A stretch of 64,000 nt of DNA, from the NCBI GenBank assembly GCA_022837635.1, contig JALHFY010000001.1, forward strand, positions 454,512 through 518,511, written 5' to 3'. The position numbers and the translations under genes were made by a program. Source of the stretch: Candidatus Shapirobacteria bacterium. GTDB lineage: Bacteria > Patescibacteriota > Microgenomatia > UBA12405. Shown here piece by piece: positions 8,800 through 56,530 of this stretch (its first letter is position 1; each line of letters starts with the position of its first letter). The notes under the pieces are model-generated. The model was not told where the DNA came from and made no database searches. It worked only from the letters and a program-made list of their open reading frames with translations.

Positions 8800-10848
8800 T
8801 TAGAACTGTTGAATAATGGTTATTTTTTCCGGAGAGAGAGGTAAACGTTTCCAAATATTAAAGATAGAAGGGAGAATTTTAATCTCATAATTATAGACTT
8901 GGGGTTGATTTTCAATAATTTTACCGGCATCGCTAATTTTTTGTTTAGTTAAGCGTTGTCGGAGCGGATCTAGATTTAATTTAGGCAAACTTTTACCAGT
9001 AATAGTTAGCTTACCGGTGGATTTTTGAGAAGTATTTTGAGTCGGAGTAAAGGAGAAAGAAAAATCTTTAACTGAGGTAATGGAATTTAAGAAAGCCTGA
9101 TCGTCTTTAAGCAGAGTGTTGATAATTTCCTCATTTTTACTGGGATCAACTTGAAGTAGAGACAGAGTTAAGGTGGCATCAACTTGAAGTTGGTCAGCTT
9201 CTTCTCCGAGTTCCCGATTAAAATCTAACTGTTTTTTATCAATAAAGAGAGTGCCTGGGAGAATACCTTCGAGAGAGGCTTCGGCTTTGATTTTTTCATC
9301 AATACGCTCATCTAGGGAATCAGTCACTCGCTTATTAAGATTAGCCTTGTCAGTTTCAGAAACTACCCGAACCTGACGTTTACTACCACCGGTGATAGGT
9401 GAAGAAGTTTTGGCGTGAAGATTAGAATTTTCTTTGAATGAAAGACGGGCGTCTTGACTTAAGTCATAATCGGAGCCAATATCGGTAGCAATAATATCGG
9501 CTTTGGCCTGACCCATGGTGATGGTGCCAGTGCCAAAATCGATAGTACTAGGAGGAATTTGGGCTGAAGTTAAAAGTTCGTATTGTTTACCGGATTCATG
9601 AAGCAAAAGACTACCTTTGGGTACATTTTGAATTTTATCGCTTTGGTTTAAGACAGTAACTTGACCTTTAGATTTATCACCAGTTTCTTTTTGACCGGTA
9701 GTATCCAAAGAATCGCTAAAATTTAAATTAAGGGTTTTTTTATGAGCCGGAATAGTCTTGTTGCTAAGAGTGTCAGCGTTAGAATCTAGGGTGATATTAA
9801 CATCACGGTTAATTTCTACCGGATTAAAGTTCATAACCACTTCGGCTCGGGTGAGTAAATAAGGTAGGAGTAAAATCAGAGGAGTCAGAGCTAAAGGTAA
9901 CAAAAAAAGCGGATTAAAGGAAAGTTTGGGTAATTTTATGTTTTTAAGGGAAAATTTAGGGAGACTGATTTTGGGGCTGGCTGGAGCTTCCTCAGTTTGG
10001 GGAACAACAAAGCCCAGATCAGCAGGAGCGACTTCAGTTTCAGAGATAGTTAAATTGCTTTCTTCTTCAACAATAGATGTTGTTTCTTCAGGTAGATTTT
10101 CTTCAACTGTTGGTGGTGGTGAAGGAGTTTCATCTGATTGAGCACTGATACTGCGAGTGTAAAGAGCAAAAAGATTGGGAGTGGGATAGGCTTCAACGTC
10201 AGGCAAGTGGAGAAAGGTTTCAATATTTTTTTTACCTATCCATGGGTAATTTTTTAAGTCTTCGATAATAGCATCAGCTATATTGCCAAAAACTAAAATT
10301 CGGGGAGGTAAAGCAGAATCAGTTTGAATGGTCAAGAGAGTATTCTCTAAATCCTGGGGAGTAAAATCAGTAGTTAAAGTTTGGGTCAAACGTTTTTTAA
10401 CTTCACCTAAATAAACTAGAGAAACTGAATATTCCTTTTTACCTAAATGAAGGAGAATAAAAGAAGGCGGAAAGGAGTCTGTTTTACCTAATGCTTCAAT
10501 AAAAGCCTCGTCGTTGCTGATAAAACCCATAGGTTTGAGCTTGAGAGAACGACAGAGATTTTCTAAAAGTTTGAGATAATCTGCGGCAATTTTGCCATCA
10601 CTACCAATCCAAAGAGGAGGCAAAATAAAAGCGGTATCAGCAGGCTCTGCTTCGGGACTGAGGGTAGCTTTATCAGCGGCGGCAGACAAGGAAACGTCGA
10701 CGGAACGCAGAAAAGAATCGGGATCATCGGTGGACCATTCGGTTTCAGGACCAATAGCGATTGGTAAGGAAGTTTGACCTTTTTTAATTAAGGCGACAGA
10801 GAGGGATTCAGGAGTAATGGATACCAACCAATAATAGGACTCAGTCAT
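8800..10848 (-). CDS. Large hypothetical bitopic membrane protein: cytoplasmic N-terminal domain of about 330 aa (possibly actin/FtsA-PilM-like), one TM helix, extracellular C-terminal domain of about 330 aa. Immediately upstream of the sortase.
   Basis: 682 aa. TM LFLLPLALTPLILLLPYLL. No recognisable catalytic motifs. Its stop abuts the sortase start at 8799/8800. Confidence 0.5.
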   Translation of the reverse strand: MTESYYWLVSITPESLSVALIKKGQTSLPIAIGPETEWSTDDPDSFLRSVDVSLSAAADKATLSPEAEPADTAFILPPLWIGSDGKIAADYLKLLENLCRSLKLKPMGFISNDEAFIEALGKTDSFPPSFILLHLGKKEYSVSLVYLGEVKKRLTQTLTTDFTPQDLENTLLTIQTDSALPPRILVFGNIADAIIEDLKNYPWIGKKNIETFLHLPDVEAYPTPNLFALYTRSISAQSDETPSPPPTVEENLPEETTSIVEEESNLTISETEVAPADLGFVVPQTEEAPASPKISLPKFSLKNIKLPKLSFNPLFLLPLALTPLILLLPYLLTRAEVVMNFNPVEINRDVNITLDSNADTLSNKTIPAHKKTLNLNFSDSLDTTGQKETGDKSKGQVTVLNQSDKIQNVPKGSLLLHESGKQYELLTSAQIPPSTIDFGTGTITMGQAKADIIATDIGSDYDLSQDARLSFKENSNLHAKTSSPITGGSKRQVRVVSETDKANLNKRVTDSLDERIDEKIKAEASLEGILPGTLFIDKKQLDFNRELGEEADQLQVDATLTLSLLQVDPSKNEEIINTLLKDDQAFLNSITSVKDFSFSFTPTQNTSQKSTGKLTITGKSLPKLNLDPLRQRLTKQKISDAGKIIENQPQVYNYEIKILPSIFNIWKRLPLSPEKITIIQQF

Positions 10849-36237: not shown

Positions 36238-36843
36238 ATGGAGAAACCAAATATATATTTTGATTTGGACAGAACTTTATTTGACACGGTTAAGTCAGGA
36301 CAAAATTATAGAGCCGCTTTAGAGAAAATTGGAATTGGCACGGAAAAGTATGAGCAAATTTACAGTAATTATAAATCTACATTAGAATCATCAACAGATT
36401 TTGATCCAAAAAAATTATTGGATTTATTGACAAAAAATTTCAATGTAAGTCCAGAAAAATTGGCTCAAAGCTTTTGGGAGAAAGGTAATTTTGTGTTATT
36501 TCCAGAAACAATGAAAACACTGGAAAAATTAAGTCAGAACAATGATTTAAGATTATTTTCGGAAGGAAATAAGAATTGGCAAAAGGGAAAAATTGAAAAA
36601 ACGGAAATTGGAGAATTTTTTGATTTAGAAGCAAGTTTAATCGAAAAACGAAAATTAAGTCCAGAGGTAATTGCAGAAATTGTCCAAGGTGCTATGGTGA
36701 TTGATGACAAAAAAGAGGTAATAAAACAACTAGCCAGTCAAAGACCAGATTTACATTTAGTTTGGATAAATAGAAACAATGAAGAGGAATTGACAGGTCA
36801 AAATATTAGAACGATTAGAGATTTGAGTGAATTACTTGAGTAA
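36238..36843 (+). CDS. HAD-superfamily hydrolase
   Basis: IYFDLDRTLFDT (DxD motif I). ...MVIDDKKEVI (motif IV-like). Confidence 0.6.
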   Translation: MEKPNIYFDLDRTLFDTVKSGQNYRAALEKIGIGTEKYEQIYSNYKSTLESSTDFDPKKLLDLLTKNFNVSPEKLAQSFWEKGNFVLFPETMKTLEKLSQNNDLRLFSEGNKNWQKGKIEKTEIGEFFDLEASLIEKRKLSPEVIAEIVQGAMVIDDKKEVIKQLASQRPDLHLVWINRNNEEELTGQNIRTIRDLSELLE

Positions 36844-42863: not shown

Positions 42864-44891
42864 TTAAGGTAATTGGTAGATGTAGGTGGAACCAGAATTA
42901 AAGACTAAACTAGCATCCAAGTCTTGTAAATTACTTAAATCAATATCAGGATATTTTTCAAATTCCTTGGCACCAATAAAAATATATTTGACCTGGTATT
43001 TGTGAAGAATATTTTTAACTTGAGTTAAGTCTGAATTAATGTTAGACAGAAAGTTGTAGACCTGATCAACTTCAGCGGCACGGGCGGCGGGGGCTTCATA
43101 ACCACCTCGCCAAAGCCATTCATGAACTAACCAACCCTGAATAGTGGGTAAACCAGTGGCCATAGAAACCTGATTAAAGGTGGTATAACTGTCACCACTG
43201 GCTTCTAAAATATGAGGTTGACCGGTGACATTTTGATTGAGCCAGTTAATCGCGGCCAGATTGTCTGGATAGGAAATTTCCAAAAAATTAACACCCCTTA
43301 AGCCCTGATATTTCTTTAATGAATAATAGGATTTGATGGGAAAATAGGTATAAGACATATGTAGGATGAAAACCAAACAAAAAAGCAATTTATACCATAG
43401 GGAAGCTCGAAGACGAATCAAGATATAACCGGCGGCTAGAGAATATAAAACAAAAGCCTGATAAACGAGTTTGAACATGGTATTGGCACGACGATAATCA
43501 AAAACATAAATATCTTTGATGTAGATAATTTCGGGAATAATGATGAGGAAGGAGGCCAGAGCAATCAGAGCAAAAACAAAAAAATCGGTGGGTAAATAAC
43601 GCTGGCGGTGGCGATTTTTAAGAAGAAAAACAATAAAAGGTAAAGAAATTAGCCAAAAACCGCCATAGAGGATAAATAACTGATAAAAAGGACTGTGAGC
43701 ATCGGAAAACATCAGACCTTCCATCATCGGCTTGAAATTGATAGAAAAAGGTAGAGTAAAGACAAACCAAGAGAAGATGGTTAAAATCCCCTGAATAATA
43801 GTTTTTTTAAGATCCTGACTTAAAAGTAAAAAAGTGAGAGCAAATAAAAGACCATAGACGGCAAAATCCCAAGCATTGGTCATATAAGCTAAAGAGAGAA
43901 TAAAACCCGAGGGAATAAAAACAAAAGGAGAGATTTTTTTACTGAGAGCCAAGGTGGCAAATAAAAAGGCGGTAAAAAACAAAACTAAGGGTAAATCATT
44001 GAGGTGCCCATGAAGATCGGCAACTACAAAACTGTAAATAGGAAACTCATGAATATTTTTGTCGGTGGTGTCAGGGTCAAAACCAATAAAACGAGTGGCA
44101 TCAGGATACCAATAATTTTGACTGGCTTGAGCCAAGGTTTCATGATATTTAAGAACTCCCCTACCCAGACGAAAGGCTAAATGAAAGTTGCCGCCAAAGG
44201 TTAAGAGGAGAGCGGAAAACAGCCCGCCGACGATAAAAAATTTACCAGCTTTTTTCTTGAGACTGTGGAAAATAAGATTGGAGGTGAGAGAAAAGGCGGA
44301 AGTGAAACTTAAGGCACACAAGGTAGCAATGGCGAGATTATAAGTAATTTGTGAAGAAATACCGGAAATTTTAGTAACCAGGGCACAAACAAAATGACCA
44401 AAGTAATAATAATTAATGGGTTCACCGGCATACCACATATCAGTGGGAGGAGAAAAGCGACTTCTCAAAATAGTATTGACAAAACCCCAATCCATAAATT
44501 TTTCCAAACCCTCAATGTCAGGAGCAAAGCCACGAAGATAAGACCAGAGAGTCAGAATAATAAAAAAGATAATCTCTTCAAACAGAAAAATCCGCCAATT
44601 TTTTTTGAGAAAATTTTTGAACTCGTGTAAGTTTTTAACAAAAAAACGATAGTTGATAATGCCAAAGATAGCGGCAACAAGTGAAACGCCACCTACAGTG
44701 AAAGGCAGAATCTTGAAAACTCCTAAAACAAAAATCAAATAAGTAATCAGGAAACAAGAAATAGTCTTGGCAAAAATATAGCCTTTATCCCAAAATTTTT
44801 TAAAAATAGAAAAAGTTAGAGGTAAGGACAAAAGGGACAAAACAAAAATAGTGAACCACCAAAAAAAAATGTAGTGAAAGTCAGCCAGCAT
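42864..44891 (-). CDS. DUF2298 / 'YYY-domain' polytopic membrane protein (putative GT-C-fold glycosyltransferase) with a C-terminal extracytoplasmic domain
   Basis: More than 10 predicted TM helices. Motif ...WYAGEPINYYYFGHF... 675 aa. Confidence 0.55.
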   Translation of the reverse strand: MLADFHYIFFWWFTIFVLSLLSLPLTFSIFKKFWDKGYIFAKTISCFLITYLIFVLGVFKILPFTVGGVSLVAAIFGIINYRFFVKNLHEFKNFLKKNWRIFLFEEIIFFIILTLWSYLRGFAPDIEGLEKFMDWGFVNTILRSRFSPPTDMWYAGEPINYYYFGHFVCALVTKISGISSQITYNLAIATLCALSFTSAFSLTSNLIFHSLKKKAGKFFIVGGLFSALLLTFGGNFHLAFRLGRGVLKYHETLAQASQNYWYPDATRFIGFDPDTTDKNIHEFPIYSFVVADLHGHLNDLPLVLFFTAFLFATLALSKKISPFVFIPSGFILSLAYMTNAWDFAVYGLLFALTFLLLSQDLKKTIIQGILTIFSWFVFTLPFSINFKPMMEGLMFSDAHSPFYQLFILYGGFWLISLPFIVFLLKNRHRQRYLPTDFFVFALIALASFLIIIPEIIYIKDIYVFDYRRANTMFKLVYQAFVLYSLAAGYILIRLRASLWYKLLFCLVFILHMSYTYFPIKSYYSLKKYQGLRGVNFLEISYPDNLAAINWLNQNVTGQPHILEASGDSYTTFNQVSMATGLPTIQGWLVHEWLWRGGYEAPAARAAEVDQVYNFLSNINSDLTQVKNILHKYQVKYIFIGAKEFEKYPDIDLSNLQDLDASLVFNSGSTYIYQLP

Positions 44892-44892
44892 T

Positions 44893-45483
44893 TTAATTTA
44901 ATCTAAAAATAAAATTGAATAACTTAATTAAAAAAGGATCGAGAGGAGTGCAGAGATGAAGTTGAGAAACAGCCAGCCAAATTAAAAAACCCATGATAAA
45001 ACCACCAAGGATGTCAGCAAAATAATGAAAACCCATGAGAATGCGGAAAAGGAGTAAGGACAAAGTAATCAATAAAAATAGTAAGGGTGAAAAAACTCCG
45101 GTTTGTAGGACAAGGAAAAAGAAAAAAGCGGTTTTAAGAGCATGACCGGAAGGAAAAGAACCGGTACGATACCAGGAATCTACCAACCCCACAGGAGTGC
45201 CATCATGACGATTAAACATGGGACGACGCCAGAGAACTTTTTTCTTGAGCCACCTTTCCGCAATTTCTCCTAAAATAGTGGCGAACAGTAATTGCCAAAA
45301 AATATGAAAGTCATGACGAATTAGAAGATAAGAGATATAAAAGAAAAAAATCCAAATAATGTAATTGAGAATGATAATCAAAATTTTTCCCAGACGATGA
45401 TGAGATAATATTCTGAGATAGTCGTGTTGTGGTTGCCAGAAAAAAAGATTATTAGTGCTCAATGGTAAGATTATACATGGCAA
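44893..45483 (-). CDS. PAP2-family (type 2 phosphatidic-acid / polyprenyl-phosphate) phosphatase
   Basis: KKKVLWRRP (KxxxxxxRP). TGSFPSGH (PSGH). MGFHYFADIL (SRxxxxxHxxxD-like). Multi-TM. Confidence 0.7.
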   Translation of the reverse strand: MPCIILPLSTNNLFFWQPQHDYLRILSHHRLGKILIIILNYIIWIFFFYISYLLIRHDFHIFWQLLFATILGEIAERWLKKKVLWRRPMFNRHDGTPVGLVDSWYRTGSFPSGHALKTAFFFFLVLQTGVFSPLLFLLITLSLLLFRILMGFHYFADILGGFIMGFLIWLAVSQLHLCTPLDPFLIKLFNFIFRLN

Positions 45484-46610
45484 TGAGAAAAATATTAATT
45501 ACGACACCCTACTTTTTACCAAATATTAGCGGAATTACCATGTACATTGATATTTTGGCAAAAAAAATGCAGGAAAAAAAATATGAAGTCGTAATTTTAA
45601 CTAGTCAGCATGAGAAGAATTTACCTAAAAAAGAGAACTATCATGGTGTAACAATTATTAGAACCAAACCTTGGCTGAAAATCGGCAAGGGTTTAATTTG
45701 TTCAAGTCTTTTATGGCAAGTGCCAATAGAGTGCGCTAAAGCAACAGTGGTTAATTGTCACTTACCTCAATTCGAGGCCGGATGGGTATCTTTTTGGGCA
45801 AAATTTTTTAGAAAAAAATTATTTTTAACACATCACACTGATTTGAGTTTTTGGAAAGGATGGAAAAATAAAATCATTGATAGTAGTGTCTATATTAGTC
45901 AAATGATAGCTGGGATATTAGCTGATAAAATTATTCCTTATACTGCTGATTATGCTCAGAACTCTTATTATCTGAATAAATTTTCCAAAAAGATATATCC
46001 TATTCTGCCACCCATATATTTTGAGAAGCAAAAAAACGAGAGACTGAATAGAAAATTGAAAGAAATAATTAAGGGTAAAAAAAACATAATTGGTTTTTGT
46101 GGTCGAATTGCAAAACAAAAAGGGTTAGAAGTGTTAATAGAAGCTAGTGATTATTTAGAAGATTACCTAATCTTGTTAGCCGGTCCTACTCAAATTATCG
46201 GAGAAAATTATTTTGAATTTTTGCAAAAAAAATATAAAAAAAAGCTGGAAAAGAATTTTGTATTTTTAGGAAACATAAATAGAAATGAACTAGCAACTTT
46301 CTACAAAAATTTAGATGTGTTGGTTTTACCAAGCGATGATAAATTAGAATCTTTTGGTTGGGTTCAGGTAGAAGCAATGCTTTGTAAGGTTCCTTGTGTG
46401 GCTACCAATATGCCAGGAATGAGAGAGCCCATCAGGCTAACCGGTATGGGTATTTTATTTAGAAAAAATGATGCCCAAGATTTGGCTCGAAAACTAAAAA
46501 CAGTATTGAAACAAAAAAAATTTTATACACAAAAATTTAATCCTGACTTAGAAATTTTCCAACCAGAAAGCAGTATTGATAAATATGAAAAACTGTTCTT
46601 CAAAAATTAG
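45462..46610 (+). CDS. Glycosyltransferase family 4 (GT-B fold, GT1 clan). The real start is probably at MRKILITT, position 45483.
   Basis: ...VQVEAMLCKVPCVATNMPGMREPI... (E-x7-E region). 382 aa. Confidence 0.8.
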   Translation: MVRLYMAMRKILITTPYFLPNISGITMYIDILAKKMQEKKYEVVILTSQHEKNLPKKENYHGVTIIRTKPWLKIGKGLICSSLLWQVPIECAKATVVNCHLPQFEAGWVSFWAKFFRKKLFLTHHTDLSFWKGWKNKIIDSSVYISQMIAGILADKIIPYTADYAQNSYYLNKFSKKIYPILPPIYFEKQKNERLNRKLKEIIKGKKNIIGFCGRIAKQKGLEVLIEASDYLEDYLILLAGPTQIIGENYFEFLQKKYKKKLEKNFVFLGNINRNELATFYKNLDVLVLPSDDKLESFGWVQVEAMLCKVPCVATNMPGMREPIRLTGMGILFRKNDAQDLARKLKTVLKQKKFYTQKFNPDLEIFQPESSIDKYEKLFFKN

Positions 46611-47412
46611 ATGTTTATTAAAAAACGAAATTGATCCTGCTTATATAGATAGGGCGGAAATCATTTTGAGGGAAATTTGTAAAACGAAACGAGGTAAATT
46701 TTTGGAGGTCGGTTGTGGGCGAGGTTTTTACCTTAAAGCAGCAGATTTTCTAAGTCCGAATCTAGAAATAATCGGAATAGATTTGAACTCGAATTATCTT
46801 CAAGTGGCCAGAAAATATGTTGATAATCCAAAAATAAAAATTGAAAAAGGAGATGCTCATAAATTAAGATTTGCTAATGAGAGTGTGGATTTAGTAGTAG
46901 CGAGTGAAATTTTGGAACACGTAGATGATGATTTGAAGGTCTTGAAAGAAATGAGGCGAGTCTTAAAAAAGAATAAAAAGGTGATTGTTAGCGTGCCCAA
47001 TCATAATTATCCTTTTTACTGGGATCCTTTGAATTGGATTTTAGAAAAAACAACTAAAAAACATCTTCCAGCTGATAAGTGGTGGTTAGCTGGAATTTGG
47101 GCTGGACATAAACGACTCTATTATGAAGATGAATTAAAAAATAAAATCAAGGCTAGTGGTTTTAAGATAGAAAAAATCTTTCGAACAACACATTATTGTC
47201 TACCAGCAGCACATTTTTTACTTTATGGAATTGGAAAAAACATTGTGGAAAAAGGTTGGCTTAAAGATTTTAATCGCTTTGAAAAGAACAGACAGTACAA
47301 TCATTTTTTACAATTAATTAAAAAAATATTTAATATTTTTGATAAGAAAAACAAAGAAAATTTTGCAAAGGATAAGACTACAGTTGGTTTGGTAATGATT
47401 TTGAAAAAATGA
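46576..47412 (+). CDS. Class I SAM-dependent methyltransferase (Methyltransf_11-like)
   Basis: GKFLEVGCGRGFYL (motif I). ...VVASEILEHVDDDLKVLKEMRRVLKKN (motif post-II/III). Confidence 0.75.
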   Translation: MINMKNCSSKIRCLLKNEIDPAYIDRAEIILREICKTKRGKFLEVGCGRGFYLKAADFLSPNLEIIGIDLNSNYLQVARKYVDNPKIKIEKGDAHKLRFANESVDLVVASEILEHVDDDLKVLKEMRRVLKKNKKVIVSVPNHNYPFYWDPLNWILEKTTKKHLPADKWWLAGIWAGHKRLYYEDELKNKIKASGFKIEKIFRTTHYCLPAAHFLLYGIGKNIVEKGWLKDFNRFEKNRQYNHFLQLIKKIFNIFDKKNKENFAKDKTTVGLVMILKK

Positions 47413-49138
47413 GTACCTGGGGGTGGTCATAGACAGTAAAAGCTTCCTCGGCGGTATCATCACGAAAATAAATGCCGGGATATGAACAATTATGGTCGAT
47501 ATCTAGCCAACTTGTCCTCTGCCCCGGATAATTGGTAGGGCCAAAATAAATACATTGTTTAAGAAAAGGAAGTGATATGCCCGGATAAGATTGAAATCTA
47601 TTGATCAAAGAAAAATTTTTATGACCGGAAAAGAGGTCTTGGTAAAATTGACTGGAGATAGGATAAAAATCGGGAACACGGGGAATACTGGCCCATAGCC
47701 GATTACTGGAGAGAACTAGATAGTCAATTTCATCTAAACTTGAATTGATTTGTTGCCATTTTTGAGGAGTGTCTTGATCAAAGAAAGGTAGAGAAATTAT
47801 CTGATAAGGAGAAGAACCAAGAGGCAGGGCATCATCCCAAGATTCAGCACTTAGTTTTTTGTCAAAAGGGATATTATCTAAAATCCAACGACTGGCCTGA
47901 ACTCGAGAATGAGGACGGGAATAGATTGATAAAAAAGCACAGACTGATAAAAATTGAAGAACTAGAAACCAGGATAGAAATTTTTTGTTGGGGTAGAAAC
48001 GAGTAAAAAATAGTGTAAAAATGAGACCAAGATAAGGATAGATTAGTAAGTAATAGCGCATAGAATGGGAAAATTGTGTTGACTGAAAAACAAACAAAGC
48101 AACAACCCAGATAGCAATAATTAAGACCGGATTAAAATTTAATCGAAGTTTTTTAAAAGATTTAATTAAGAGGATTAAGAAAAAGACACTAAAAGGTAAA
48201 CCCAGTCCCCAGATAAGTAAATTTTGTAAAGGATGAAGAAATAGATTTCGATTTAACCATTGGATTCCCGGTGGATAAAAAGAATCAGGACGAGAATAAT
48301 ACCGGAGAGAATTAAGACTATTTAAGAAATCAGGACTCAGCTGAAAGGAGAAGGAAAAAGTATAAGGTGAAATAAGTCGAAAAAATAAAATTGAAACTAA
48401 AAAGGCAGACAAGGTGGAAAATAAAATGCTGTTTTTTTGTTTAGCTTTTAAGAAAAGCCAGAGCCAAAGTAAAAAAAGAATCGGTAAGAAATAAAAAGCG
48501 GACACTTTACAACTCAGAGCTAAGGCAAAAGCTAAAGAGGCGGGAATAATTTTTTGATAAAGTAAAAGACAAAAACTGAGTAATAAAAAGAAATTTAAGA
48601 AGGTGTCAACGGCAAAGAAGTGTGACAGTTGAACAGGTAAAATTAATAAAGAATAAGTCAGAGGGGCTAAGAGTAAAAAATGAGAACGAGGCCGGAGTTT
48701 TTTGACAATGAAATAAATGATGAAAATATTTAAGGAATCAAAGAGAGCTGACAAAACACGTCCGATTAAAACGAGATGATGATAATTGTTTAAGTTAAAA
48801 ACAACAGCAATGACTTTAGTTAAAAAAACTGGAAAAGTGCCATAGACATAAAAACGATATTGATCATAGTTATAAGGATTGAGAGGTGAAGTGGAATAAT
48901 CAAAATAGTTTTTTAAGCTACTAGGTAAACTAATATCGGTGGCCAACATAGTTAAAAATCTTTCGTCAGGATGGAGATGAAAACCTTGATCCCAATTGAG
49001 ACCATAAATTCTGAGAACAAAAGCGAAAATAAAAATAAGTCCTAAAATAATTTGATGTTTAGTGATGCGAATCATGTTGATAGAGGCGAATAGTCGGCCG
49101 ATCAAAAACCGTCCAAGTTTCTTCGGCGTTTTCACCAT
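47378..49138 (-). CDS. GT-C-fold glycosyltransferase, PMT/ArnT-like (GT39/GT83-like), paralog 1
   Basis: About 13 TM helices. First loop ...LNWDQGFHLHPDERFLTM... Confidence 0.6.
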   Translation of the reverse strand: MVKTPKKLGRFLIGRLFASINMIRITKHQIILGLIFIFAFVLRIYGLNWDQGFHLHPDERFLTMLATDISLPSSLKNYFDYSTSPLNPYNYDQYRFYVYGTFPVFLTKVIAVVFNLNNYHHLVLIGRVLSALFDSLNIFIIYFIVKKLRPRSHFLLLAPLTYSLLILPVQLSHFFAVDTFLNFFLLLSFCLLLYQKIIPASLAFALALSCKVSAFYFLPILFLLWLWLFLKAKQKNSILFSTLSAFLVSILFFRLISPYTFSFSFQLSPDFLNSLNSLRYYSRPDSFYPPGIQWLNRNLFLHPLQNLLIWGLGLPFSVFFLILLIKSFKKLRLNFNPVLIIAIWVVALFVFQSTQFSHSMRYYLLIYPYLGLIFTLFFTRFYPNKKFLSWFLVLQFLSVCAFLSIYSRPHSRVQASRWILDNIPFDKKLSAESWDDALPLGSSPYQIISLPFFDQDTPQKWQQINSSLDEIDYLVLSSNRLWASIPRVPDFYPISSQFYQDLFSGHKNFSLINRFQSYPGISLPFLKQCIYFGPTNYPGQRTSWLDIDHNCSYPGIYFRDDTAEEAFTVYDHPQVLIFSKSLPNQL

Positions 49139-50477
49139 TTAAGAGAAAATCAGGTAAAGGGGAAAACGTATGCCATAGTTGGAAAGGAAGCTTTCCTGAA
49201 AAAAGATCTCGATGGTAAGGTAAATCATAATTTTTAAAGACACGACGAGAAGGCACCAGAATATATTCAGAATTATTGATAAGTGGTTCTAAGAGAGTAG
49301 GATCATAGTTATAAAAATCATAATTAGTAACTTGAAAATTACCTGACAGGGGTAAATTGACGACATTACCCGACTCAGACAAAATAATTGAATTTTGAGG
49401 AATATTTTTTAAGATAAAATCTGAAGCTTGGACCCGAGTATCGGGTAAAAAATAATTAGCAAAAAATAATATTCCTGGTAAAATGGCCAGAAAAATGAGT
49501 TTGGGAAATTTTTTAAGTAAAGGCAAAGATAAAAGAGGTAAAAGAAAAAATAAGGGTGACATAAAACGGGTCCATTTAACATAAAGTTGGCCAAAGTAAA
49601 GAAAATAAACTAAAGAAGAAAGTGCCACAATAAGATTAAGTTTGTTGGAAAAAATTTTTTTAATATTTTTGAGAGAAAATAAACTAAAAATAATAACGGG
49701 TAAACCATTAGTGTAGGGGAAAATTTTAGTAAGCTGGAAAATGTATGGCCAGGTGTCGGCAAATTGTTGGGTGTAAAAAACTGGTAGTTGACCACTAGCA
49801 ACTCCGGTTTCATATTTCATAGAAGAAAGGAAATCAGGCCAAAGAATGAGACTATAAGGAGAAAAAAGTACTGCCAATAGTAGAGTTAAGATTAAAAAAG
49901 GGAGAATTAAATAAAAATTCTGAAAAAGTAATACCAATAAAATAGGACCGGTAAAAATAATTCCAGAAAGTTTGGTGGCCAAAGCAACAGCACTAACGAC
50001 AGAAGCCCATAAAAAATATTTCAATTTGAGCTTGTTTAACATGAGTTTAGCCAGATAGAGATTGATGGCAAAAGTTAAAATCAGTAAAGATTCGGTAGTA
50101 CCGAAATGGGCCAATTGAATTAATCCGGGGGTAAAAATAAGTAAAATAATAAATTTTAAGTTGGGATAAATTTTGTAGAAAAAATAGAGGGAAAGTAAAG
50201 AAAAAAGAGCGGAATAAAATCTTAAAATAAAAACGGAATTGGCAAAATCATTATCAAGACCTAAAAATTTGAGAGTAAAAAAGCCTAAATATAGAGGAAA
50301 TTGACCGTAAGCAAAAAAACGAGGGTTAAGATCTGATAGCTTGAGTTGAGATAAAGATGAGGCCATATTGTTCTCATCAGGGTGAAAAAAATGGCCATCA
50401 CCCCACTTTAATCCAAAAAAACGAGTAAAGATAGCTAGAAAAACAACAATAGTAAGAAAATATTTTTTAGAGGACAT
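49059..50477 (-). CDS. GT-C-fold glycosyltransferase, PMT/ArnT-like, paralog 2
   Basis: Polytopic. First loop ...LKWGDGHFFHPDENNMAS... Same architecture as the downstream paralog. Overlaps it by 80 nt. Confidence 0.6.
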   Translation of the reverse strand: MSSKKYFLTIVVFLAIFTRFFGLKWGDGHFFHPDENNMASSLSQLKLSDLNPRFFAYGQFPLYLGFFTLKFLGLDNDFANSVFILRFYSALFSLLSLYFFYKIYPNLKFIILLIFTPGLIQLAHFGTTESLLILTFAINLYLAKLMLNKLKLKYFLWASVVSAVALATKLSGIIFTGPILLVLLFQNFYLILPFLILTLLLAVLFSPYSLILWPDFLSSMKYETGVASGQLPVFYTQQFADTWPYIFQLTKIFPYTNGLPVIIFSLFSLKNIKKIFSNKLNLIVALSSLVYFLYFGQLYVKWTRFMSPLFFLLPLLSLPLLKKFPKLIFLAILPGILFFANYFLPDTRVQASDFILKNIPQNSIILSESGNVVNLPLSGNFQVTNYDFYNYDPTLLEPLINNSEYILVPSRRVFKNYDLPYHRDLFSGKLPFQLWHTFSPLPDFLLNGENAEETWTVFDRPTIRLYQHDSHH

Positions 50478-51372
50478 AGATGATAGTAATTATCATCAGA
50501 CCCCAGAGAATAATCGAGGCCAATAGCGGAATGTCGGTAGCAATAACTCTTTCTGGACGCTCCCCTTCCTGCATCTCAAAAATAATTTGACCGTAGCGCA
50601 TAATGCCAAAGATGGTTGGGATTAAAGTAACCATCCACCATTTTCTGTCTAAAGCAGCCGGGTAATTTTCTACTAAAAATTCATGAATAATACCACCGAA
50701 ACTGATAGGTTCAGCCAAAAAGGTAAACATGGCATAACAAATAAGGGTGCAGACAGCAAAAATGGTAGTGTAAAAATTCAAAAGGCTTTTATTATAACCT
50801 TCAAGAGCCTTGCGAGTACTGCGACCACTGCGATAAAGCTCACTACGTCTTTTGCCACTAGCTATAAACAAAGATAGAAAAATAACTGCTAACATAATCC
50901 AAACCGGCAAATGATAGCCACTGGCTATTTCACCAGCATAAGTACGAATAATAAAAAAGAGAGCAATACCCATAATGTCCAAAAGTGCTTTCTTTTTAAT
51001 GAAAAAGGAGTAGCTATATTGGAGAAAAATAAAGATAATCGCCAAGCTAAAGAAAGTAGAATTAACCCGAGAAGCAAAGAAAAGTCCCACTAAAAAAAGT
51101 ATGACAGCAGTAATAATGGCGGTTTTTTGGGTAATCGCACCTCGAGCTAAAGGACGGTTTTTTTTGACTGGGTGTAATCTGTCTTTATCAACATCAACCA
51201 GATCATTAACTAAGTAAGAAGATGAAGATAAAAGACAAAAACTAATAAAGGCTAGAAGGCTGGGAAAAAAAGCACTACTGTTGAATAATTGTCCGGTAAG
51301 AATCACTGCCGCAAAAACACTGAGATTCTTGATCCATTGGTTGGGACGAAGAGATTGAATTAGAGCTGACAC
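50467..51372 (-). CDS. UbiA-family prenyltransferase, decaprenyl-phosphate phosphoribosyltransferase (DPPR synthase)-like
   Basis: ...SYLVNDLVDVDKDRLHPVKKNRPLARGAI (NDxxDxxxD). About 8 TM helices. 301 aa. Confidence 0.7.
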   Translation of the reverse strand: MSALIQSLRPNQWIKNLSVFAAVILTGQLFNSSAFFPSLLAFISFCLLSSSSYLVNDLVDVDKDRLHPVKKNRPLARGAITQKTAIITAVILFLVGLFFASRVNSTFFSLAIIFIFLQYSYSFFIKKKALLDIMGIALFFIIRTYAGEIASGYHLPVWIMLAVIFLSLFIASGKRRSELYRSGRSTRKALEGYNKSLLNFYTTIFAVCTLICYAMFTFLAEPISFGGIIHEFLVENYPAALDRKWWMVTLIPTIFGIMRYGQIIFEMQEGERPERVIATDIPLLASIILWGLMIITIIYVL

Positions 51373-51373
51373 A

Positions 51374-52324
51374 CTACAATAATATCAAAAAGCCAAGGAG
51401 AGTGATGATGCCACCAATGATTCCTAAGAATTGTGATGGGAATTCTACCCCAGATTTAGGCAGAATAATGCGGGTGGGAGTGGGTTCCTCGGCAATAACC
51501 TGAGTGGGTACTGGAGTATTGGTTGGAGGAATTGGGGTATTGGTGGGTTGCGGAGCATTGGTTGGTGGGATAGGTGTGGAAGTTGGTTGAGGTGTATTGG
51601 TTGGAGGCACAGGAGTGGGGGTGGGAGTGTTGGTAGGCACTGGAGTATTGGTGGGTTTGGGGGTAGAAGTTGGTTTAGGAGTAGAAGTTGGGATGGGGGT
51701 ATTGGTAGGTTTGGGAGTAGAAGTTGGGATGGGGGTATTGGTAGGAATAACCGGAGCTGGTTCATAACCAAAAATAATCAACCAGTCATTAAAATCATAA
51801 TCCTGAGTAATATCATCGATGACAGCATCTGCCCAGCATTGGATCTGATGAGGACCATCTGATTCCTGTTGGGCGCGAGTGATTTCATTACTTATAGGGA
51901 TGACTGCATTACCATTTTTGCCACAGGTATTACCTGGGGGATTTGGAGCTACCCAACCATAAGCATCGGCAGGATCTCGACTGGCCCTAACTGATAATTT
52001 GTATGTAGCTGGAACAGAACTAGTGCTGAGTAACTGGGAAAAAACTTTAGTAGAATTGATTAGCATGGGGGAGCTACCAGTATTTACCGAGATGACATCG
52101 TTGGGGTTGGCAGTGTTTTGAAGGCGAATAGTAAAGGAATTATCTGAAATTTTAGCAGTGAAAAACATTTTCACTGATTTATTGGCAGCAAAGGTAACAT
52201 GTGGTGGATCAACTCGACTCCTGTCTATGGCTAAACGACGTCTATCCTGATTTTGTTTAACTAAAAATAAAGCCCCTCCTAGAGAAAATAAAAAGAACAG
52301 AAGACTAAGTATTTTGTATTTCAT
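51374..52324 (-). CDS. Secreted protein with an N-terminal globular domain, a long Pro/Thr-rich repeat linker and a C-terminal hydrophobic anchor
   Basis: Signal peptide MKYKILSLLFFLFSLGGALFLV. ...PTNTPIPTSTPKPTNTPIPTSTPKPTSTPKPT... End ...ILPKSGVEFPSQFLGIIGGIITLLGFLILL. Confidence 0.6.
   Translation of the reverse strand: MKYKILSLLFFLFSLGGALFLVKQNQDRRRLAIDRSRVDPPHVTFAANKSVKMFFTAKISDNSFTIRLQNTANPNDVISVNTGSSPMLINSTKVFSQLLSTSSVPATYKLSVRASRDPADAYGWVAPNPPGNTCGKNGNAVIPISNEITRAQQESDGPHQIQCWADAVIDDITQDYDFNDWLIIFGYEPAPVIPTNTPIPTSTPKPTNTPIPTSTPKPTSTPKPTNTPVPTNTPTPTPVPPTNTPQPTSTPIPPTNAPQPTNTPIPPTNTPVPTQVIAEEPTPTRIILPKSGVEFPSQFLGIIGGIITLLGFLILL
51500..51757 (-). repeat. Degenerate tandem repeats encoding P-T-N-T-P-I/K-P-T-S units, including a perfect 36-nt tandem duplication (about 51681-51752)
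   Basis: gtagaagttgggatgggggtattggtaggtttggga occurs twice in tandem. Explains spurious ORFs 51445..51771(-) and 51548..51862(+). Confidence 0.8.
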
Positions 52325-53583
52325 GGTCGATAGTAATATAAGGATATACCAAATAGGGTCATGGCTGCAACAATTATAATGGCGGTAGGCAAAGAATTAC
52401 CACTTTGGTAAAGAGTAGAGGCGGTGGAAATGTCAGCAGTTTTGACGGTAGGTATCGGTGTAGTTGTTGGACTAGGTGGTGATTGGGTAGGTGTTGGAGT
52501 GAGAGTAGCAATAGGTTGAGTGGGAATTAGAGTGGCTGAAGGTGTAGCTGTAAAAGCAATATTACTATTGTTTTGAGTTTGAGAAGAGACATTAAAATTG
52601 ATACTGATAGTATTTTGGGCATCAGAGATAGAAAGCTGATGATCACCTAAAAACAAATCTGTAGCTGGTGACCAATGCCAGGTGTTATCAGCCGGAACGT
52701 GTACTTGGAAAGCCTGATTATCCAAAACTAAGCGGAGGTTGGTACCAGCGGTGGCTTGACCAAAGATATCCGGCCTGCGAGTAGTGATGGTTTCATTGTT
52801 TTTGGGACTAGTAAGACTAAGTGGTACTGAAATAGTTTGCGAAGAAGGAGTGTTGACAGGTAAAGAAGCTACAGAGCGAGTGGATAAATTTTGTTCAGTT
52901 TGGCCAAAAATAATGTCGGGAACAGGATCATTGTTGTCAGTGGTATTGTTAAGAGAAGTAACTTTGTTTTCTGGAGAATAGACAATAATTTCTTCATCAA
53001 GATTGTTGGGAGGAATAAACCAGTTATTAGTTTTGTCGTTAAAACTGTTGGCAAAGGAAATATTCCATTGACCTTCACGGTTGGTAATGGCTGATAAAGT
53101 TTGGCTACCAGGAATATTCAAGTAAACTATAGCTCCAGGCAAGGGAGTTCGGTCAGGGTTAAGTACCTTACCCCAAGCCAAATTAGAAACAGGCACAGAA
53201 CCAGGTGGTTTGAGACCAGTTTTGAGAGTGTAAGAAGATGAGTTGTAATTTTGTCCGCCTGAAATAATGGTCCATTTGTAAGTAGTGTCAGAGGCTAAAT
53301 TACTAACCTGAAAATAATGTGAAAATTCTGAAGGAGAAATATCAGAAACGATCTGACCATTAACTGAGAGAGTTGACTTACAATTTTTGCCAGTAGTTAG
53401 GAATGAATAATCAAATGATGAGTGAGTTAGATTAGTAAACTGAGGATTGATAGGTTCACAACTAGGGCTAGCATCTGAACGAAGGCTGGTTTTTTTGGTT
53501 GTGAGAAAAACTCCTGCTATCAAAATAATCAGCAGAAAAAAAATTCCTAAAATAGTCGGAAGTGTTTTAACGCCTTTTTTCAA
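52321..53583 (-). CDS. Secreted/anchored surface protein with FN3-like and CarboxypepD_reg/Cna-B-like beta-sandwich domains, a PT-rich segment and a C-terminal TM anchor
   Basis: N-terminal anchor LPTILGIFFLLIILIAGVF. ...WGKVLNPDRTPLPGAIVYLNIPGSQTLSAITNREGQWNISF. C-terminal ...TPTPTQSPPSPTTTPIPT...LPTAIIIVAAMTLFGISLYYYRP. Confidence 0.55.
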   Translation of the reverse strand: MKKGVKTLPTILGIFFLLIILIAGVFLTTKKTSLRSDASPSCEPINPQFTNLTHSSFDYSFLTTGKNCKSTLSVNGQIVSDISPSEFSHYFQVSNLASDTTYKWTIISGGQNYNSSSYTLKTGLKPPGSVPVSNLAWGKVLNPDRTPLPGAIVYLNIPGSQTLSAITNREGQWNISFANSFNDKTNNWFIPPNNLDEEIIVYSPENKVTSLNNTTDNNDPVPDIIFGQTEQNLSTRSVASLPVNTPSSQTISVPLSLTSPKNNETITTRRPDIFGQATAGTNLRLVLDNQAFQVHVPADNTWHWSPATDLFLGDHQLSISDAQNTISINFNVSSQTQNNSNIAFTATPSATLIPTQPIATLTPTPTQSPPSPTTTPIPTVKTADISTASTLYQSGNSLPTAIIIVAAMTLFGISLYYYRP

Positions 53584-54922: not shown

Positions 54923-56530
54923 TCAGGAAAAGAAACGTAAGAGACGCTTTAAATAGGACTTAAAATGTTCATATTCAGGAGAGCGTAAAAGCGAGGTAGT
55001 TAAAACAAAGCTACTAAGTCCGAAAATGACGGAAATTGCAAAAATAATGATGACATTGATAGTTCGGCTAGTGTCAAAGACAAAAAGATCTAAAATTCTA
55101 ATAATTATCCAAGCAAAAAAACTACCAACACCGGTAGCTAGAATAATTTTAAGCAAATTAAGATAGCTTCCATGCCAATCATGACCATCAACCCGCTTGA
55201 GAAAAACTATGAAGAGAGTTAAGGATTGAACTAAGTTGGCGCTGGAAGCAGCCACAGCTAAAGCAACGATACCTAAATTGGTAAAACGCAAGAGAAGATA
55301 GCTAAGAATCACGTTGACACTTAATGATAAAGCAGAAATTTTGAAAGGAGTTTTAGTATCGTGAAGGGCATAAAAAGAGCGAATAAGAATCTGAATAACT
55401 ACCTGACAAATAATGGCTGGGGTTAAAAAGGCTAAAGTGCGGGCAGTTAGTAATGTGGCTGACCAAGGGAATTGTTTGCTACCAAAGGCAATACGGACAA
55501 TAGCTAATCGATCAATTAAAGTAATGGCGGCAATAGGTACAGTAATATACAAGCCTTGGAGAATGGCCCTACGGACAGTTTGGCGAAAAAGATTGAGCTG
55601 ATTTTTAGCGACATTTTTGGAAAGAACCGGCAGCGAAGCTTGACCAACAGTAGTCCCAAAGATTCGACTGGGAAGATAAATAAGTTGAAGAGCTAGGTTT
55701 AATAAAGAAAGTGAACCGGCAGTCAAACCTGAAGCAAAAAAGAGGGTAACAGTATTTTCAATTTCAGATAAACCCAAAGAGAGGGTACGAGGAATCATCA
55801 GACGAATAATATCTCTGACACCCTGAAGTTTAAGACTTAAAATTGGACTATAAATAAAACCGGATTTCAAGATGGCGGGAAATTGAATAGCCATGTGAAA
55901 GAAAGCACCAATAACTGCCCCATAAACAACTCCATGAATACCGAAGAGAGGAGCTAAGGTAAAAATACTAATGATAATAGCTAAATTATAAATAATTGGC
56001 GAAAGAGCTGGCAAAATAAAATTTTGTTTAACCTGGAGAATGGCCGTCAAAAAATTACTGATTAAAAAGAAGATTTGAGCTAATAAAAGAATTCTGGTTA
56101 AGTTGGCCATGAGTTTGATCTGTTCAGAACTAAAACCTTTGGCGATAATCTGGGATAAAGGAGTGGCAAAAATAAAGGCAAAAACGGAAATAATGATGAA
56201 AACAACTAAAAGTAAATTAATCACGGCCGAAGCGGTTAAGTAAGCTTCTTTTTTGTTTTTGTGTAAAAGGCCACTAAAAACCGGAATAAAGGAGGCAGAA
56301 AGAGCGCCGGTAACTAAAAGTTTGAAAATGAGATCGGGAATTCTGAAAGCAGCGTTGTAAGCATCCAATTCTAGAACACAACATTTGAAAAAGGCAGAAT
56401 ATAGAAATCGAGTTCTAAGAAAACCTAGTAGGGCAGAAATTAAAAAGGTAATAGCCAAAACCATGGTGGCGGAAAAGATACTTTTTTGGCGCTGAGCCAA
56501 AATGGATTTTAAGTTGAAGTGAAAAGACAT
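54923..56530 (-). CDS. murJ: Lipid II flippase MurJ (MviN, MOP superfamily)
   Basis: ...LGFLRTRFLYSAFF...LDAYNAAFRIPDLIFKLLVTGALSASFIPVFS... 14 TM helices. Confidence 0.85.
   Translation of the reverse strand: MSFHFNLKSILAQRQKSIFSATMVLAITFLISALLGFLRTRFLYSAFFKCCVLELDAYNAAFRIPDLIFKLLVTGALSASFIPVFSGLLHKNKKEAYLTASAVINLLLVVFIIISVFAFIFATPLSQIIAKGFSSEQIKLMANLTRILLLAQIFFLISNFLTAILQVKQNFILPALSPIIYNLAIIISIFTLAPLFGIHGVVYGAVIGAFFHMAIQFPAILKSGFIYSPILSLKLQGVRDIIRLMIPRTLSLGLSEIENTVTLFFASGLTAGSLSLLNLALQLIYLPSRIFGTTVGQASLPVLSKNVAKNQLNLFRQTVRRAILQGLYITVPIAAITLIDRLAIVRIAFGSKQFPWSATLLTARTLAFLTPAIICQVVIQILIRSFYALHDTKTPFKISALSLSVNVILSYLLLRFTNLGIVALAVAASSANLVQSLTLFIVFLKRVDGHDWHGSYLNLLKIILATGVGSFFAWIIIRILDLFVFDTSRTINVIIIFAISVIFGLSSFVLTTSLLRSPEYEHFKSYLKRLLRFFS

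Follow-up and report, generated by a model that had tools for sequence, protein, structure and literature searches.

A gene cluster of a Candidatus Shapirobacteria bacterium (contig JALHFY010000001.1) probably encodes a system for pentofuranose glycosylation outside the cytoplasm, in the form typical of Shapirobacteria and Woesebacteria and with polyprenyl-phosphate-ribofuranose as the donor. The cluster lies within the 64 kb stretch of DNA that was analysed as a whole (hereafter the window; coordinates are positions in it, with the strand in brackets). Judged by sequence, a phosphoribosyltransferase of the UbiA fold, three proteins of the GT-C glycosyltransferase fold and a PAP2 phosphatase with intact catalytic motifs are encoded together, and the set is conserved in relatives. 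Pathways of this kind are already known from mycobacteria, Pseudomonas and enterobacteria; what is new is the version found in the candidate phyla radiation (CPR), for which no description was found in the literature searched. A sequence-only reading of the same stretch had seen in the UbiA and PAP2 genes a mirror of the mycobacterial Rv3806c/Rv3807c pair. The UbiA half of this likeness stands; the PAP2 half is not supported, and the constant partners of UbiA are GT-C enzymes.

A putative phosphoribosyltransferase of the UbiA fold

The 301-aa UbiA protein (50467..51372, -), which contains YLVNDLVDVDKDRLHP, is similar to the polyprenyl-phosphate and decaprenyl-phosphate 5-phosphoribosyltransferases (PPPRS and DPPRS, respectively). 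As the sequence-only reading had described, its open reading frame (ORF) and that of PAP2, with the motif FPSGH, are present in one block. The protein scores 91 bits against Pfam UbiA. On NCBIfam it matches the decaprenyl-phosphate phosphoribosyltransferase models NF008978 (200.9 bits, cutoff 207), NF008977 (193.6 bits, cutoff 234) and NF008976 (157 bits, cutoff 474), whereas the next, non-DPPRS prenyltransferase models (GGGP synthase, haem O synthase, UbiA, MqnP) reach at most 53 bits; a grouping with the MenA/UbiA quinone enzymes, on which the earlier proposal would have foundered, is not what these scores show. With 163 bits the protein also matches NF006088, at positions 193-383 of 482; from its length and the place of the match this model is taken to describe a HAD-UbiA fusion family. 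In the PDB the best match is Rv3806c (8j8j; E 1.3e-37, residues 3-222 aligned), other UbiA folds following at 2e-9 or worse. The two proteins align end to end with about 32% identity and one 16-residue insertion that is common to the CPR homologues.

The NDxxDxxxD magnesium site of cytoplasmic loop 1 (N56, D57, D60 and D64) is invariant in the alignment of the UbiA family. In the cryo-EM structure of Rv3806c, magnesium is bound by N73 and D77, the ribose by N73 and Q135, the 5'-phosphate by K28, Y70 and Y157, and the pyrophosphate by R22, K87, R90, K143 and Y138; the sites that bind phosphoribose are not shared by the other enzymes of the UbiA family (PMC10994848). Ten of these eleven ligands of phosphoribosyl pyrophosphate (PRPP) and magnesium are identical in the window protein (R22, K28, Y70, N73, D77, K87, R90, Q135, Y138 and K143), and the eleventh, Y157, is replaced by Phe, a substitution reported for some mycobacteria (PMC10994848). 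The placement of the protein in the Rv3806c-type phosphoribosyltransferase clade, apart from the MenA/UbiA quinone enzymes, is thus supported. Because of the DPPRS model scores, the PDB ranking and the conservation of the PRPP ligands, its putative identity as a PRPP:polyprenyl-phosphate phosphoribosyltransferase is well supported, if unproven.

Three predicted GT-C glycosyltransferases

Downstream of UbiA lie two genes for paralogous membrane proteins similar to protein O-mannosyltransferases (PMTs) and ArnT. The start of the first (472 aa; 49059..50477, -) overlaps the UbiA stop by 11 nt, and in all loci of the window's architecture (type A, see below) this gene is directly downstream of UbiA. 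The second (586 aa as called, with a likely start at M22, position 49075; 47378..49138, -) is related to the first over its full length (BLASTP, 26% identity, E 1e-19). Taken singly, the window proteins are below or barely at the Pfam threshold, with a weak PMT_2 match for the 472-aa protein and a weak ArnT match for the 586-aa one, an orthologue of which carries PMT_2 in locus L001. The profile of their family (30 sequences) matches yeast Pmt1 (4e-14) and Pmt4 (1.6e-13), ArnT (1.5e-8) and archaeal AglB (5e-8), as well as yeast Pmt2. The similarity to PMT and ArnT is mainly in the N-terminal half, where D34 is invariant and E35 nearly so, directly after the first transmembrane (TM) segment. 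An AF2 model of the 472-aa protein from a two-sequence alignment (pLDDT 42) was set aside; the assignment is that of the profile search, by which both proteins are GT-C enzymes. Enzymes of this fold use polyprenyl-phosphate-linked donors outside the membrane.

The PMTs (GT39; Pmt1, Pmt2 and Pmt4) and ArnT (GT83) are thus the best profile matches of the paralogues and share with them the D-E pair after the first TM segment. PMTs modify Thr and Ser in Pro/Thr-rich regions with a polyprenyl-phosphate-linked sugar. The window proteins differ in having no MIR domains and in their donor, which is predicted from the context to be a pentofuranose, not mannose or Ara4N.

The third predicted GT-C enzyme is encoded farther downstream, by a gene for a 675-aa membrane protein (42864..44891, -) of the DUF2298/Chlor_Arch_YYY family, which starts 1 nt after the PAP2 stop. 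The protein is a bona fide member of TIGR03662 (437.9 bits, cutoff 300.25). Searches of the PDB by single sequence and by profile returned no match for it. An AlphaFold model from 41 homologues (pLDDT 83, pTM 0.88) shows a GT-C fold with multiple TM segments and, outside the cytoplasm, a globular AglB-like domain at the C-terminus; the best Foldseek match of this model is the mycobacterial AftA, and ALG12, ArnT, Pmt4, AglB, STT3, PglB, AftD and AftB are matched too. On this model DUF2298 is predicted to be the third GT-C of the cluster. No function assigned to the family was found in the literature searched, and to what is known of it the present analysis adds the GT-C fold, a gene fusion to a PMT-like GT-C and the PPPRS context. 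The fusion is found in the Anaerolineales locus L081 (1-3804, -), where an uninterrupted frame of at least 1268 aa joins a PMT-like GT-C, 33% identical to that at 47378-49138 of the window, to DUF2298, next to genes for a GT-C, a methyltransferase, a GT4 glycosyltransferase, a short-chain dehydrogenase/reductase (SDR) and a divergent UbiA. This Rosetta-stone link therefore ties DUF2298 to the same pathway.

In some DUF2298 proteins of Shapirobacteria (about 747 aa; P0241, P0243 and L004:16671-18914) the extracytoplasmic domain at the C-terminus contains a LysM insert, which points to an action of these proteins at or near peptidoglycan.

Conservation of the cluster

The closest relatives of the window UbiA and DUF2298 proteins, up to 96% identical, are in metagenome-assembled genomes named Candidatus Shapirobacteria, Woesebacteria or Patescibacteria. 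In contigs with UbiA proteins labelled as Woesebacteria or Shapirobacteria the gene order is that of the window (type A), and in the Woesebacteria type UbiA, the two GT-Cs, PAP2 and DUF2298 are contiguous. A metagenome scan with the PAP2 family returned 80 loci, 47 of them testable for DUF2298 and 22 for UbiA. UbiA lies upstream of PAP2 within 10 kb in 22 of these 22 loci, always with at least two GT-C genes in between, and UbiA, two or more GT-Cs, PAP2 and DUF2298 occur together in all 22; an opposite-strand GT4 gene is placed between the GT-Cs and PAP2 in 16 of them, and some loci also have a third GT-C gene, one for a methyltransferase or one for an extended SDR. Because UbiA is upstream in every testable locus and the order is the same in the Woesebacteria and Shapirobacteria contigs, the co-location of UbiA and PAP2 is not due to chance.

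Across a wider range of genomes it is the GT-C genes that stay with UbiA. A scan of the GTDB species genomes with the UbiA family gave more than 584 matches in many phyla; among the CPR species loci, within the best 80 of these matches, a GT-C gene is found within 3 genes of UbiA in 28 of 36. GT-C enzymes are thus the constant partners of UbiA.

The PAP2 phosphatase

The PAP2 lipid-phosphate phosphatase (196 aa as called; 44893..45483, -; Pfam PAP2 46.6 bits) belongs to a distinct CPR subfamily. Its catalytic motifs, K80x6R87P88, P111SGH114 and R147x5H153x3D157, are invariant in 80 of 80 relatives, and the same 80 share a private, invariant N-terminal FWQP motif. Because of a promoter-like site upstream (TTAATA-17-TATAAT, 45498-45470) and the N-termini of the orthologues, translation more likely begins with the TTG codon at position 45462, which gives 189 aa.

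When compared by BLASTP with Rv3807c, recovered from an M. tuberculosis contig, PAP2 aligned over 33 aa only. Reciprocal family hidden Markov models scored 22-31 bits over the C2-C3 motifs only, PgpB scoring 32 bits and YodM similarly; on NCBIfam both PAP2 and Rv3807c match, weakly, only generic undecaprenyl-diphosphatase models. In sequence, Rv3807c is no nearer to PAP2 than generic enzymes of the superfamily are (E. coli PgpB, B. subtilis YodM). The earlier reading would have been refuted by a generic undecaprenyl-diphosphate phosphatase without clustering in relatives; clustering with UbiA was found in 22 of 22 testable loci.

The two genes had been described as separated only by glycosyltransferases; between them are in fact the two GT-Cs, a GT4 gene and a gene for an S-adenosylmethionine (SAM)-dependent methyltransferase, the latter two on the opposite strand, so that four genes (5 kb) and a strand switch divide UbiA from PAP2. 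With this opposite-strand insert and its own promoter-like site, PAP2 is in a transcription unit separate from that of UbiA. Within CPR it is not a constant partner of UbiA either: among the 21 CPR UbiA loci with full flanks (8 kb or more to either side of UbiA), PAP2 is present in 4 and missing from 17, while it stands immediately upstream of DUF2298 in 47 of 47 testable loci. The occurrence of PAP2 is lineage-specific and follows that of DUF2298, not that of UbiA.

We tentatively favour PAP2 as the candidate 5'-phosphatase of polyprenyl-phosphate-ribose-5-phosphate, a role that falls a little short of probable. It is favoured because of precedent (Rv3807c and its homologue PsPA7_6245), cluster membership, predicted topology and a HAD-like stand-in in Gottesmanbacteria. 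As to topology, Lys and Arg residues average 11.4 on the active-site face (N-terminal tail plus catalytic loop) and 2.2 on the other, the faces being set by alignment-defined segments, and the bias is seen in 80 of 80 sequences. By the positive-inside rule this hints, weakly since the catalytic loops of PAP2 enzymes are intrinsically basic, at an active site that faces the cytoplasm.

The alternative is that PAP2 is a carrier-lipid (polyprenyl-diphosphate) phosphatase, serving either DUF2298, if this is an oligosaccharyltransferase- or ligase-like enzyme that releases polyprenyl diphosphate, or the general peptidoglycan lipid cycle; another enzyme would then dephosphorylate the UbiA product and the pairing of UbiA and PAP2 would be indirect. 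PAP2 enzymes such as BcrC, PgpB and the eukaryotic Dol-PP phosphatase do recycle diphosphate lipids after en bloc transfer. The overlapping or near-abutting ends of PAP2 and DUF2298 in the 47 loci (a 1-nt gap in the window), the retention of UbiA and GT-C in the 17 CPR loci that lack PAP2, the equal closeness of PAP2 to PgpB/YodM and to Rv3807c, and its weak NCBIfam matches to undecaprenyl-diphosphatases only all agree with this. So do the AglB-like C-terminal domain of DUF2298, which matches STT3, PglB and AglB as well as AftA, and the setting of the cluster among cell-wall genes (MurJ, FemAB). On the other side, L015 and L081 have DUF2298 without PAP2, the subfamily with the private FWQP motif is confined to the cluster in every locus recovered, and the charge bias would put the active site on the same side as the K/R-rich N-terminal tail of 25-30 residues, i.e. 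in the cytoplasm, which is the wrong side for the recycling of external diphosphate lipids. We consider a carrier-lipid role possible, if somewhat less likely.

A protein of 192-193 aa with no Pfam or NCBIfam match is encoded next to the GT4-methyltransferase genes in L009 (16013-16594, -) and L015 (17988-18566, -); it has the HAD-like motifs DLDGV/DFDGV, SSR/SGR and EDD/EDN, and in the Gottesmanbacteria locus L015 it occupies the slot of PAP2 before DUF2298, as a possible alternative 5'-phosphatase. In the window, a HAD gene at 36238-36843 was considered as a PRP-type phosphatase and not used, its match being weak and CTE7/YjjG-like and its distance 14 kb.

Epimerases and the donor sugar

The sequence-only reading had noted that DprE1 and DprE2 are lacking and had predicted ribofuranosyl rather than arabinofuranosyl donors; the lack is confirmed for the window, and the prediction agrees with the published rule given below. 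A Pfam scan of window ORFs of 110 aa or more, which covered nearly all substantial ones, returned no FAD_binding_4/ALO (DprE1) or adh_short (DprE2) domain, nor did a six-frame phmmer search of the 64 kb with actinobacterial DprE1 and DprE2 give a match. Within 10 kb of UbiA neither gene occurs in any of about 125 CPR loci (some 45 from genomes and 80 metagenomic), whereas DprE1/DprE2 homologues flank UbiA in 12 non-CPR loci, mostly of Actinomycetota, with one from Rokubacteria and one from Sideroxydans. According to the published rule, a cluster without an epimerase delivers ribofuranose (Ribf), one with an SDR xylofuranose (Xylf) and one with DprE1/DprE2 arabinofuranose (Araf) (Kelly et al., PNAS 2024, PMC11127046). 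By analogy, with no DprE1/DprE2 or other epimerase in the cluster, the donor sugar of the window organism would most likely be ribofuranose.

We regard it as unlikely that the system delivers arabinofuranose or another epimer by means of DprE1/DprE2 or a non-homologous epimerase encoded elsewhere. The window is 64 kb of a genome that is probably about ten times larger (relatives are on contigs of 0.6-0.9 Mb), and in M. tuberculosis itself DprE1/DprE2 are not adjacent to Rv3806c, there being none within the 8 kb flanks of L007. The clusters of some relatives, moreover, encode a possible redox enzyme, either an extended SDR ahead of PAP2 or a PRK07233-family flavoprotein upstream of UbiA. The window has neither of these enzymes, however, DprE1/DprE2 are missing from all CPR loci yet adjacent to UbiA in non-mycobacterial Actinomycetota, Rokubacteria and Sideroxydans, and the published epimerase-free systems transfer Ribf directly (PMC11127046).

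The extended SDR (motifs GGAGFIGS and YGCSK) is encoded directly upstream of PAP2, with overlap, in L004 (15084-16100) and in 9 of the 80 metagenomic loci (e.g. L092, L097, L118 and L127). It is strain-variable, is seen in L004-6 and occurs also in L081 (7902-8930); its best NCBIfam matches, RmlB and GalE, are below the cutoffs. It parallels the ORF13 epimerase of Citrobacter youngae O2, which switches Ribf to Xylf, and relatives with this gene in the cluster may make an epimer. In Gottesmanbacteria a flavin amine-oxidase-like protein is encoded directly upstream of UbiA (L015:8688-9965, +, and likewise L013, L014, L016, L021 and L028); it scores 369.6 bits, above the cutoff, with NF005560 (PRK07233, 'hypothetical protein') and could be an alternative oxidase for sugar epimerisation. 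Genes for 480-aa and 270-aa proteins upstream of UbiA in Levy- and Collierbacteria were considered as DprE1 and DprE2 and rejected, Pfam identifying them as MetRS and TatD.

UbiA loci of other lineages

Among the best 80 matches the UbiA loci fall into several groups. In Gottesmanbacteria the PRK07233-family flavoprotein is followed by UbiA, two or three GT-Cs, methyltransferase, GT4, the HAD-like protein and DUF2298, with no PAP2. Type B (Levy-, Collier-, Ames- and Cerribacteria) has GT2, GT-C, a 117-aa protein with three TM segments, a WecA/MraY-like transferase and UbiA, also with no PAP2. In Mycobacteriales an Rv3807c-like PAP2 is directly upstream of UbiA in 11 loci, with AftB next, while in other Actinomycetota, a Rokubacteria and a Sideroxydans UbiA has adjacent DprE1 and DprE2 and no PAP2. 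In Chloroflexi UbiA is accompanied by mevalonate-pathway kinases or, in L081, by SDR, GT4, methyltransferase, GT-C and the fused GT-C-DUF2298.

The type-B loci (L017-L051, e.g. L023:5591-10915) are very conserved, in the order MetRS, TatD, membrane GT2 and GT-C (PMT_2), then the 117-aa protein, which has an LPPxxPxxNQxPWG loop; there is no PAP2 or DUF2298 nearby, and the cluster looks like a lipid-linked polymer pathway. In L081 (10872-12607) the genes after UbiA are, as tested with Pfam, those of a GHMP kinase and of a member of the amino-acid-kinase family (mevalonate kinase/isopentenyl-phosphate kinase-like); in L060 and L067 genes of similar size follow UbiA, size alone being compared. These kinases suggest either that there is a connection with the supply of polyprenyl or that part of the family has another role. 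A DUF362 protein is encoded inside the UbiA/GT-C cluster of the CPR locus L042 (4884-5939), and directly after UbiA and before GT-C in an unclassified bacterium (L076:4594-5670). Several records titled 'uncultured Gammaproteobacteria/Pseudomonadales' (L009, L012, L013, L018, L021, L028 etc.) carry CPR-type synteny, and P0016 and P0279 are named 'Candidatus Methanoperedens sp.'; the UbiA and DUF2298 genes of such records are about 40-78% identical to those of the window, and these contigs are mislabelled or mis-binned CPR.

That UbiA should be an ordinary prenyltransferase (quinone, haem O or ether-lipid) among unrelated housekeeping genes in lineage-wide synteny is very improbable: its Pfam label is 'UbiA' only, JGI often names its homologues '4-hydroxybenzoate polyprenyltransferase', it scores just under the DPPRS cutoffs and its Chloroflexi homologues adjoin mevalonate-pathway kinases, but both the DPPRS models and the PDB ranking place it far from the other prenyltransferases, it keeps Q135 (ribose O3) and K28 and Y70 (5'-phosphate), sites that other UbiA enzymes do not conserve (PMC10994848), and it is coupled to GT-C genes in three different CPR cluster architectures.

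Gene context and candidate acceptors

The window has a GC content of about 35-40%. A co-directional minus-strand array runs in the order MurJ, PilN-like, PilO-like, a 64-aa ORF, an Ig-like 420-aa protein, a Pro/Thr-rich 316-aa protein, UbiA, the 472-aa and the 586-aa GT-Cs; 3' of the last are the two plus-strand genes (GT4 and SAM methyltransferase), after which the minus strand resumes with PAP2, DUF2298, a UvrD-type helicase, FemAB and GatCAB. Housekeeping genes are found in the remainder of the window. Of the plus-strand pair, the GT4-family (GT-B, nucleotide-sugar) glycosyltransferase (45462..46610, +; Pfam Glycos_transf_1 113.6 bits) is divergent from PAP2, and the methyltransferase (46576..47412, +; Pfam Methyltransf_11/25/31) is an accessory insert. 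Both recur beside UbiA/GT-C in the CPR loci L009 and L015 and in Anaerolineales L081, the GT4 of which is 33% identical to that of the window.

MurJ, the lipid II flippase of the MOP superfamily at the head of the array (54923..56530, -; TIGR01695 265.7 bits), is given as context only, its position being conserved synteny in relatives. Since it passes the MurJ equivalog cutoff (235.55), its candidacy as a dedicated flippase was rejected as unsupported. No GtrA-, SMR- or MATE-type flippase was found between 42864 and 53583.

Two surface proteins are candidate acceptors. The Pro/Thr-rich 316-aa protein (51374..52324, -) has an N-terminal signal/anchor and ends in LPKSG and a hydrophobic tail, a sortase-type signal; a 36-nt repeat is present in the stalk region of its gene. 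Its gene lies directly upstream of UbiA in type-A loci, with a 1-nt gap in the window, and its orthologues (11-18% Thr) all end in LPx(S/A)G and a hydrophobic tail. The second candidate, the Ig-like 420-aa protein (52321..53583, -; weak Big_13/CarboxypepD_reg matches), has a PT-rich C-terminal stalk, a sorting-signal-like end and a conserved position; its orthologues end in xPV(A/S/T)G or LYQSG with a hydrophobic tail. PT-rich LPxSG/LPxTG-type proteins are adjacent to UbiA in type-A loci and nearby in type-B loci. The sugar probably goes either to the Thr/Pro-rich stalks of these two sortase-signal proteins or to a peptidoglycan-linked polymer. That the best matches of the GT-C paralogues are protein O-mannosyltransferases hints at the proteins; the polymer is equally possible because of the LysM insert in some DUF2298 proteins and the WecA-like initiating enzyme of the type-B clusters.

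Elsewhere in the window a sortase (Pfam 87 bits) is encoded next to a 682-aa protein without a family match (8065-10848, -), a pair that probably serves, as machinery and substrate, the surface proteins of the LPxSG type encoded beside UbiA. A 232-aa protein (2292-2990, -) has a borderline match to Pacifastin_I (27.6 bits, cutoff 27.9), a protease-inhibitor domain of arthropods that bacteria seldom have.

Comparison with known systems

The mycobacterial pathway consists of the UbiA enzyme Rv3806c, the PAP2 enzyme Rv3807c, DprE1/DprE2 and the GT-Cs AftA-D and EmbA-C. The window shares with it the PRPP and magnesium ligands of the phosphoribosyltransferase, a clustered PAP2, several GT-Cs, AftA as the best fold match of DUF2298 and a monoderm wall. 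It differs in that DprE1/DprE2 are not nearby, PAP2 is neither orthologous to Rv3807c by sequence nor adjacent to UbiA, the two paralogous GT-Cs are PMT/ArnT-like instead of Emb/Aft-like, no equivalent of Rv3789 (GtrA-type) was found, and the GlfT2/Glf neighbours are absent.

The pairing of the two enzymes had been held specific to Corynebacterineae, a view now outdated. Systems of PPPRS, phosphatase and GT-C occur in Citrobacter, other Gram-negatives, Gram-positives and a phage (PMC11127046), and P. aeruginosa PA7 has homologues of Rv3807c and Rv3806c (6245 and 6246); the family scan, with its more than 584 GTDB matches, agrees. In C. youngae the O antigen receives alpha-ribofuranose from undecaprenyl-phosphate-Ribf through the action of three components, namely a PPPRS in which an Rv3806c homologue is joined to a HAD phosphatase, a flippase and a GT-C; in the O1/O2 clusters these are ORF15 (PRP-PPPRS), ORF14 (a MATE flippase) and ORF12 (GT136, closest to ArnT), and a GalE-like SDR converts the donor to Xylf, while Araf systems carry DprE1/DprE2 (PMC11127046). 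The logic is the same as that proposed here: the PPPRS uses PRPP to make polyprenyl-phosphate-Ribf, with a phosphatase to take off the 5'-phosphate, and the sugar is transferred by a GT-C on the outer side, with the optional SDR of relatives corresponding to ORF13 and the weak ArnT match of one window GT-C to the closeness of ORF12 to ArnT. In contrast to C. youngae, the candidate phosphatase of the window is a separate PAP2 (HAD-like in some relatives) where C. youngae has a fused HAD domain, no dedicated flippase of the MATE or SMR type was found, the GT-Cs are three, PMT/ArnT-like plus DUF2298, and the locus is that of a monoderm CPR bacterium, not an O-antigen locus.

In P. aeruginosa PA7, where the group IV pilin is O-arabinofuranosylated, the system consists of the GT-C TfpW and PsPA7_6245-6251, and the DprE1/DprE2 of the cluster are required. 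There, too, homologues of Rv3806c and Rv3807c are found outside Actinobacteria, and a surface protein receives a pentofuranose on Ser/Thr from a GT-C; the PT-rich surface proteins and PilN/PilO-like genes directly upstream in the window are a parallel. Unlike the window, the Pseudomonas cluster has DprE1/DprE2, and its acceptor is a type IV pilin, whereas the window proteins are of the sortase type with no prepilin leader.

Proposed pathway and significance

We propose that the UbiA enzyme transfers 5-phosphoribose from PRPP to polyprenyl phosphate at the cytoplasmic face of the membrane, like Rv3806c and C. youngae ORF15, a step that is well supported by sequence. Removal of the 5'-phosphate would then yield polyprenyl-phosphate-ribofuranose, PAP2 being the best candidate here and the HAD-like protein in Gottesmanbacteria. 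The lipid-linked sugar would be flipped, no dedicated flippase having been found in the cluster, and three GT-Cs, namely the two PMT/ArnT-like paralogues translationally coupled to UbiA and the AftA-like DUF2298, would transfer pentofuranosyl residues outside the membrane, a step in which the fold is supported and the donor and acceptor are presumed from the context. The several transferases probably differ in the linkages that they form, as do those of mycobacterial arabinan.

Several of the observations given above tell against this pathway as drawn. The UbiA protein is below all the DPPRS equivalog cutoffs, narrowly for NF008978 and NF008977. The GT-C paralogues match PMT/ArnT and not the Emb/Aft families in sequence, so the donor could be another polyprenyl-phosphate-linked sugar. 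PAP2 resembles generic enzymes as much as Rv3807c, is transcribed apart from UbiA, is missing from most CPR UbiA loci and stands by DUF2298. Only 64 kb of the genome was seen, so that DprE1/DprE2 or an unrelated epimerase could lie elsewhere; no flippase was found in the cluster; the company of mevalonate-pathway kinases in Chloroflexi means that the context varies across the family; and every step after the first is deduced for proteins known from their sequences.

The fullest form of the proposal is that Microgenomates-class CPR bacteria use polyprenyl-phosphate-Ribf and three GT-Cs to build a pentofuranose glycan, an arabinan-like 'ribofuranan' or O-ribofuranosylated Thr/Pro-rich stalks of the sortase-anchored surface proteins, with DUF2298 as an AftA-like pentofuranosyltransferase and PAP2 as a cytoplasm-facing 5'-phosphatase. 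As a whole this is speculative and, in all its parts together, unlikely. Its simpler core would nevertheless extend the three-component pentofuranose concept of 2024 to a monoderm candidate phylum and to PMT-like GT-Cs, and would provide the first testable functional context for DUF2298. The adjacency of UbiA and PAP2, on the other hand, emerges as a feature of Mycobacteriales and not as a signature of the pathway, which matters for the use of the pair as an annotation rule.

Hardly anything is known of the envelopes of CPR/Patescibacteria, symbionts that attach to their hosts by the cell surface. The key enzyme, UbiA, is 70-96% identical across the homologues of Shapirobacteria and Woesebacteria, and the cluster takes up about 9 kb, with relatives lying on contigs of only 0.6-0.9 Mb; in so small a genome this points to a core surface glycan. 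If the fullest form of the proposal is true, it would give a first function to DUF2298/Chlor_Arch_YYY, a family common to Chloroflexi and Archaea, and would reveal a conserved envelope glycan of an uncultivated radiation.

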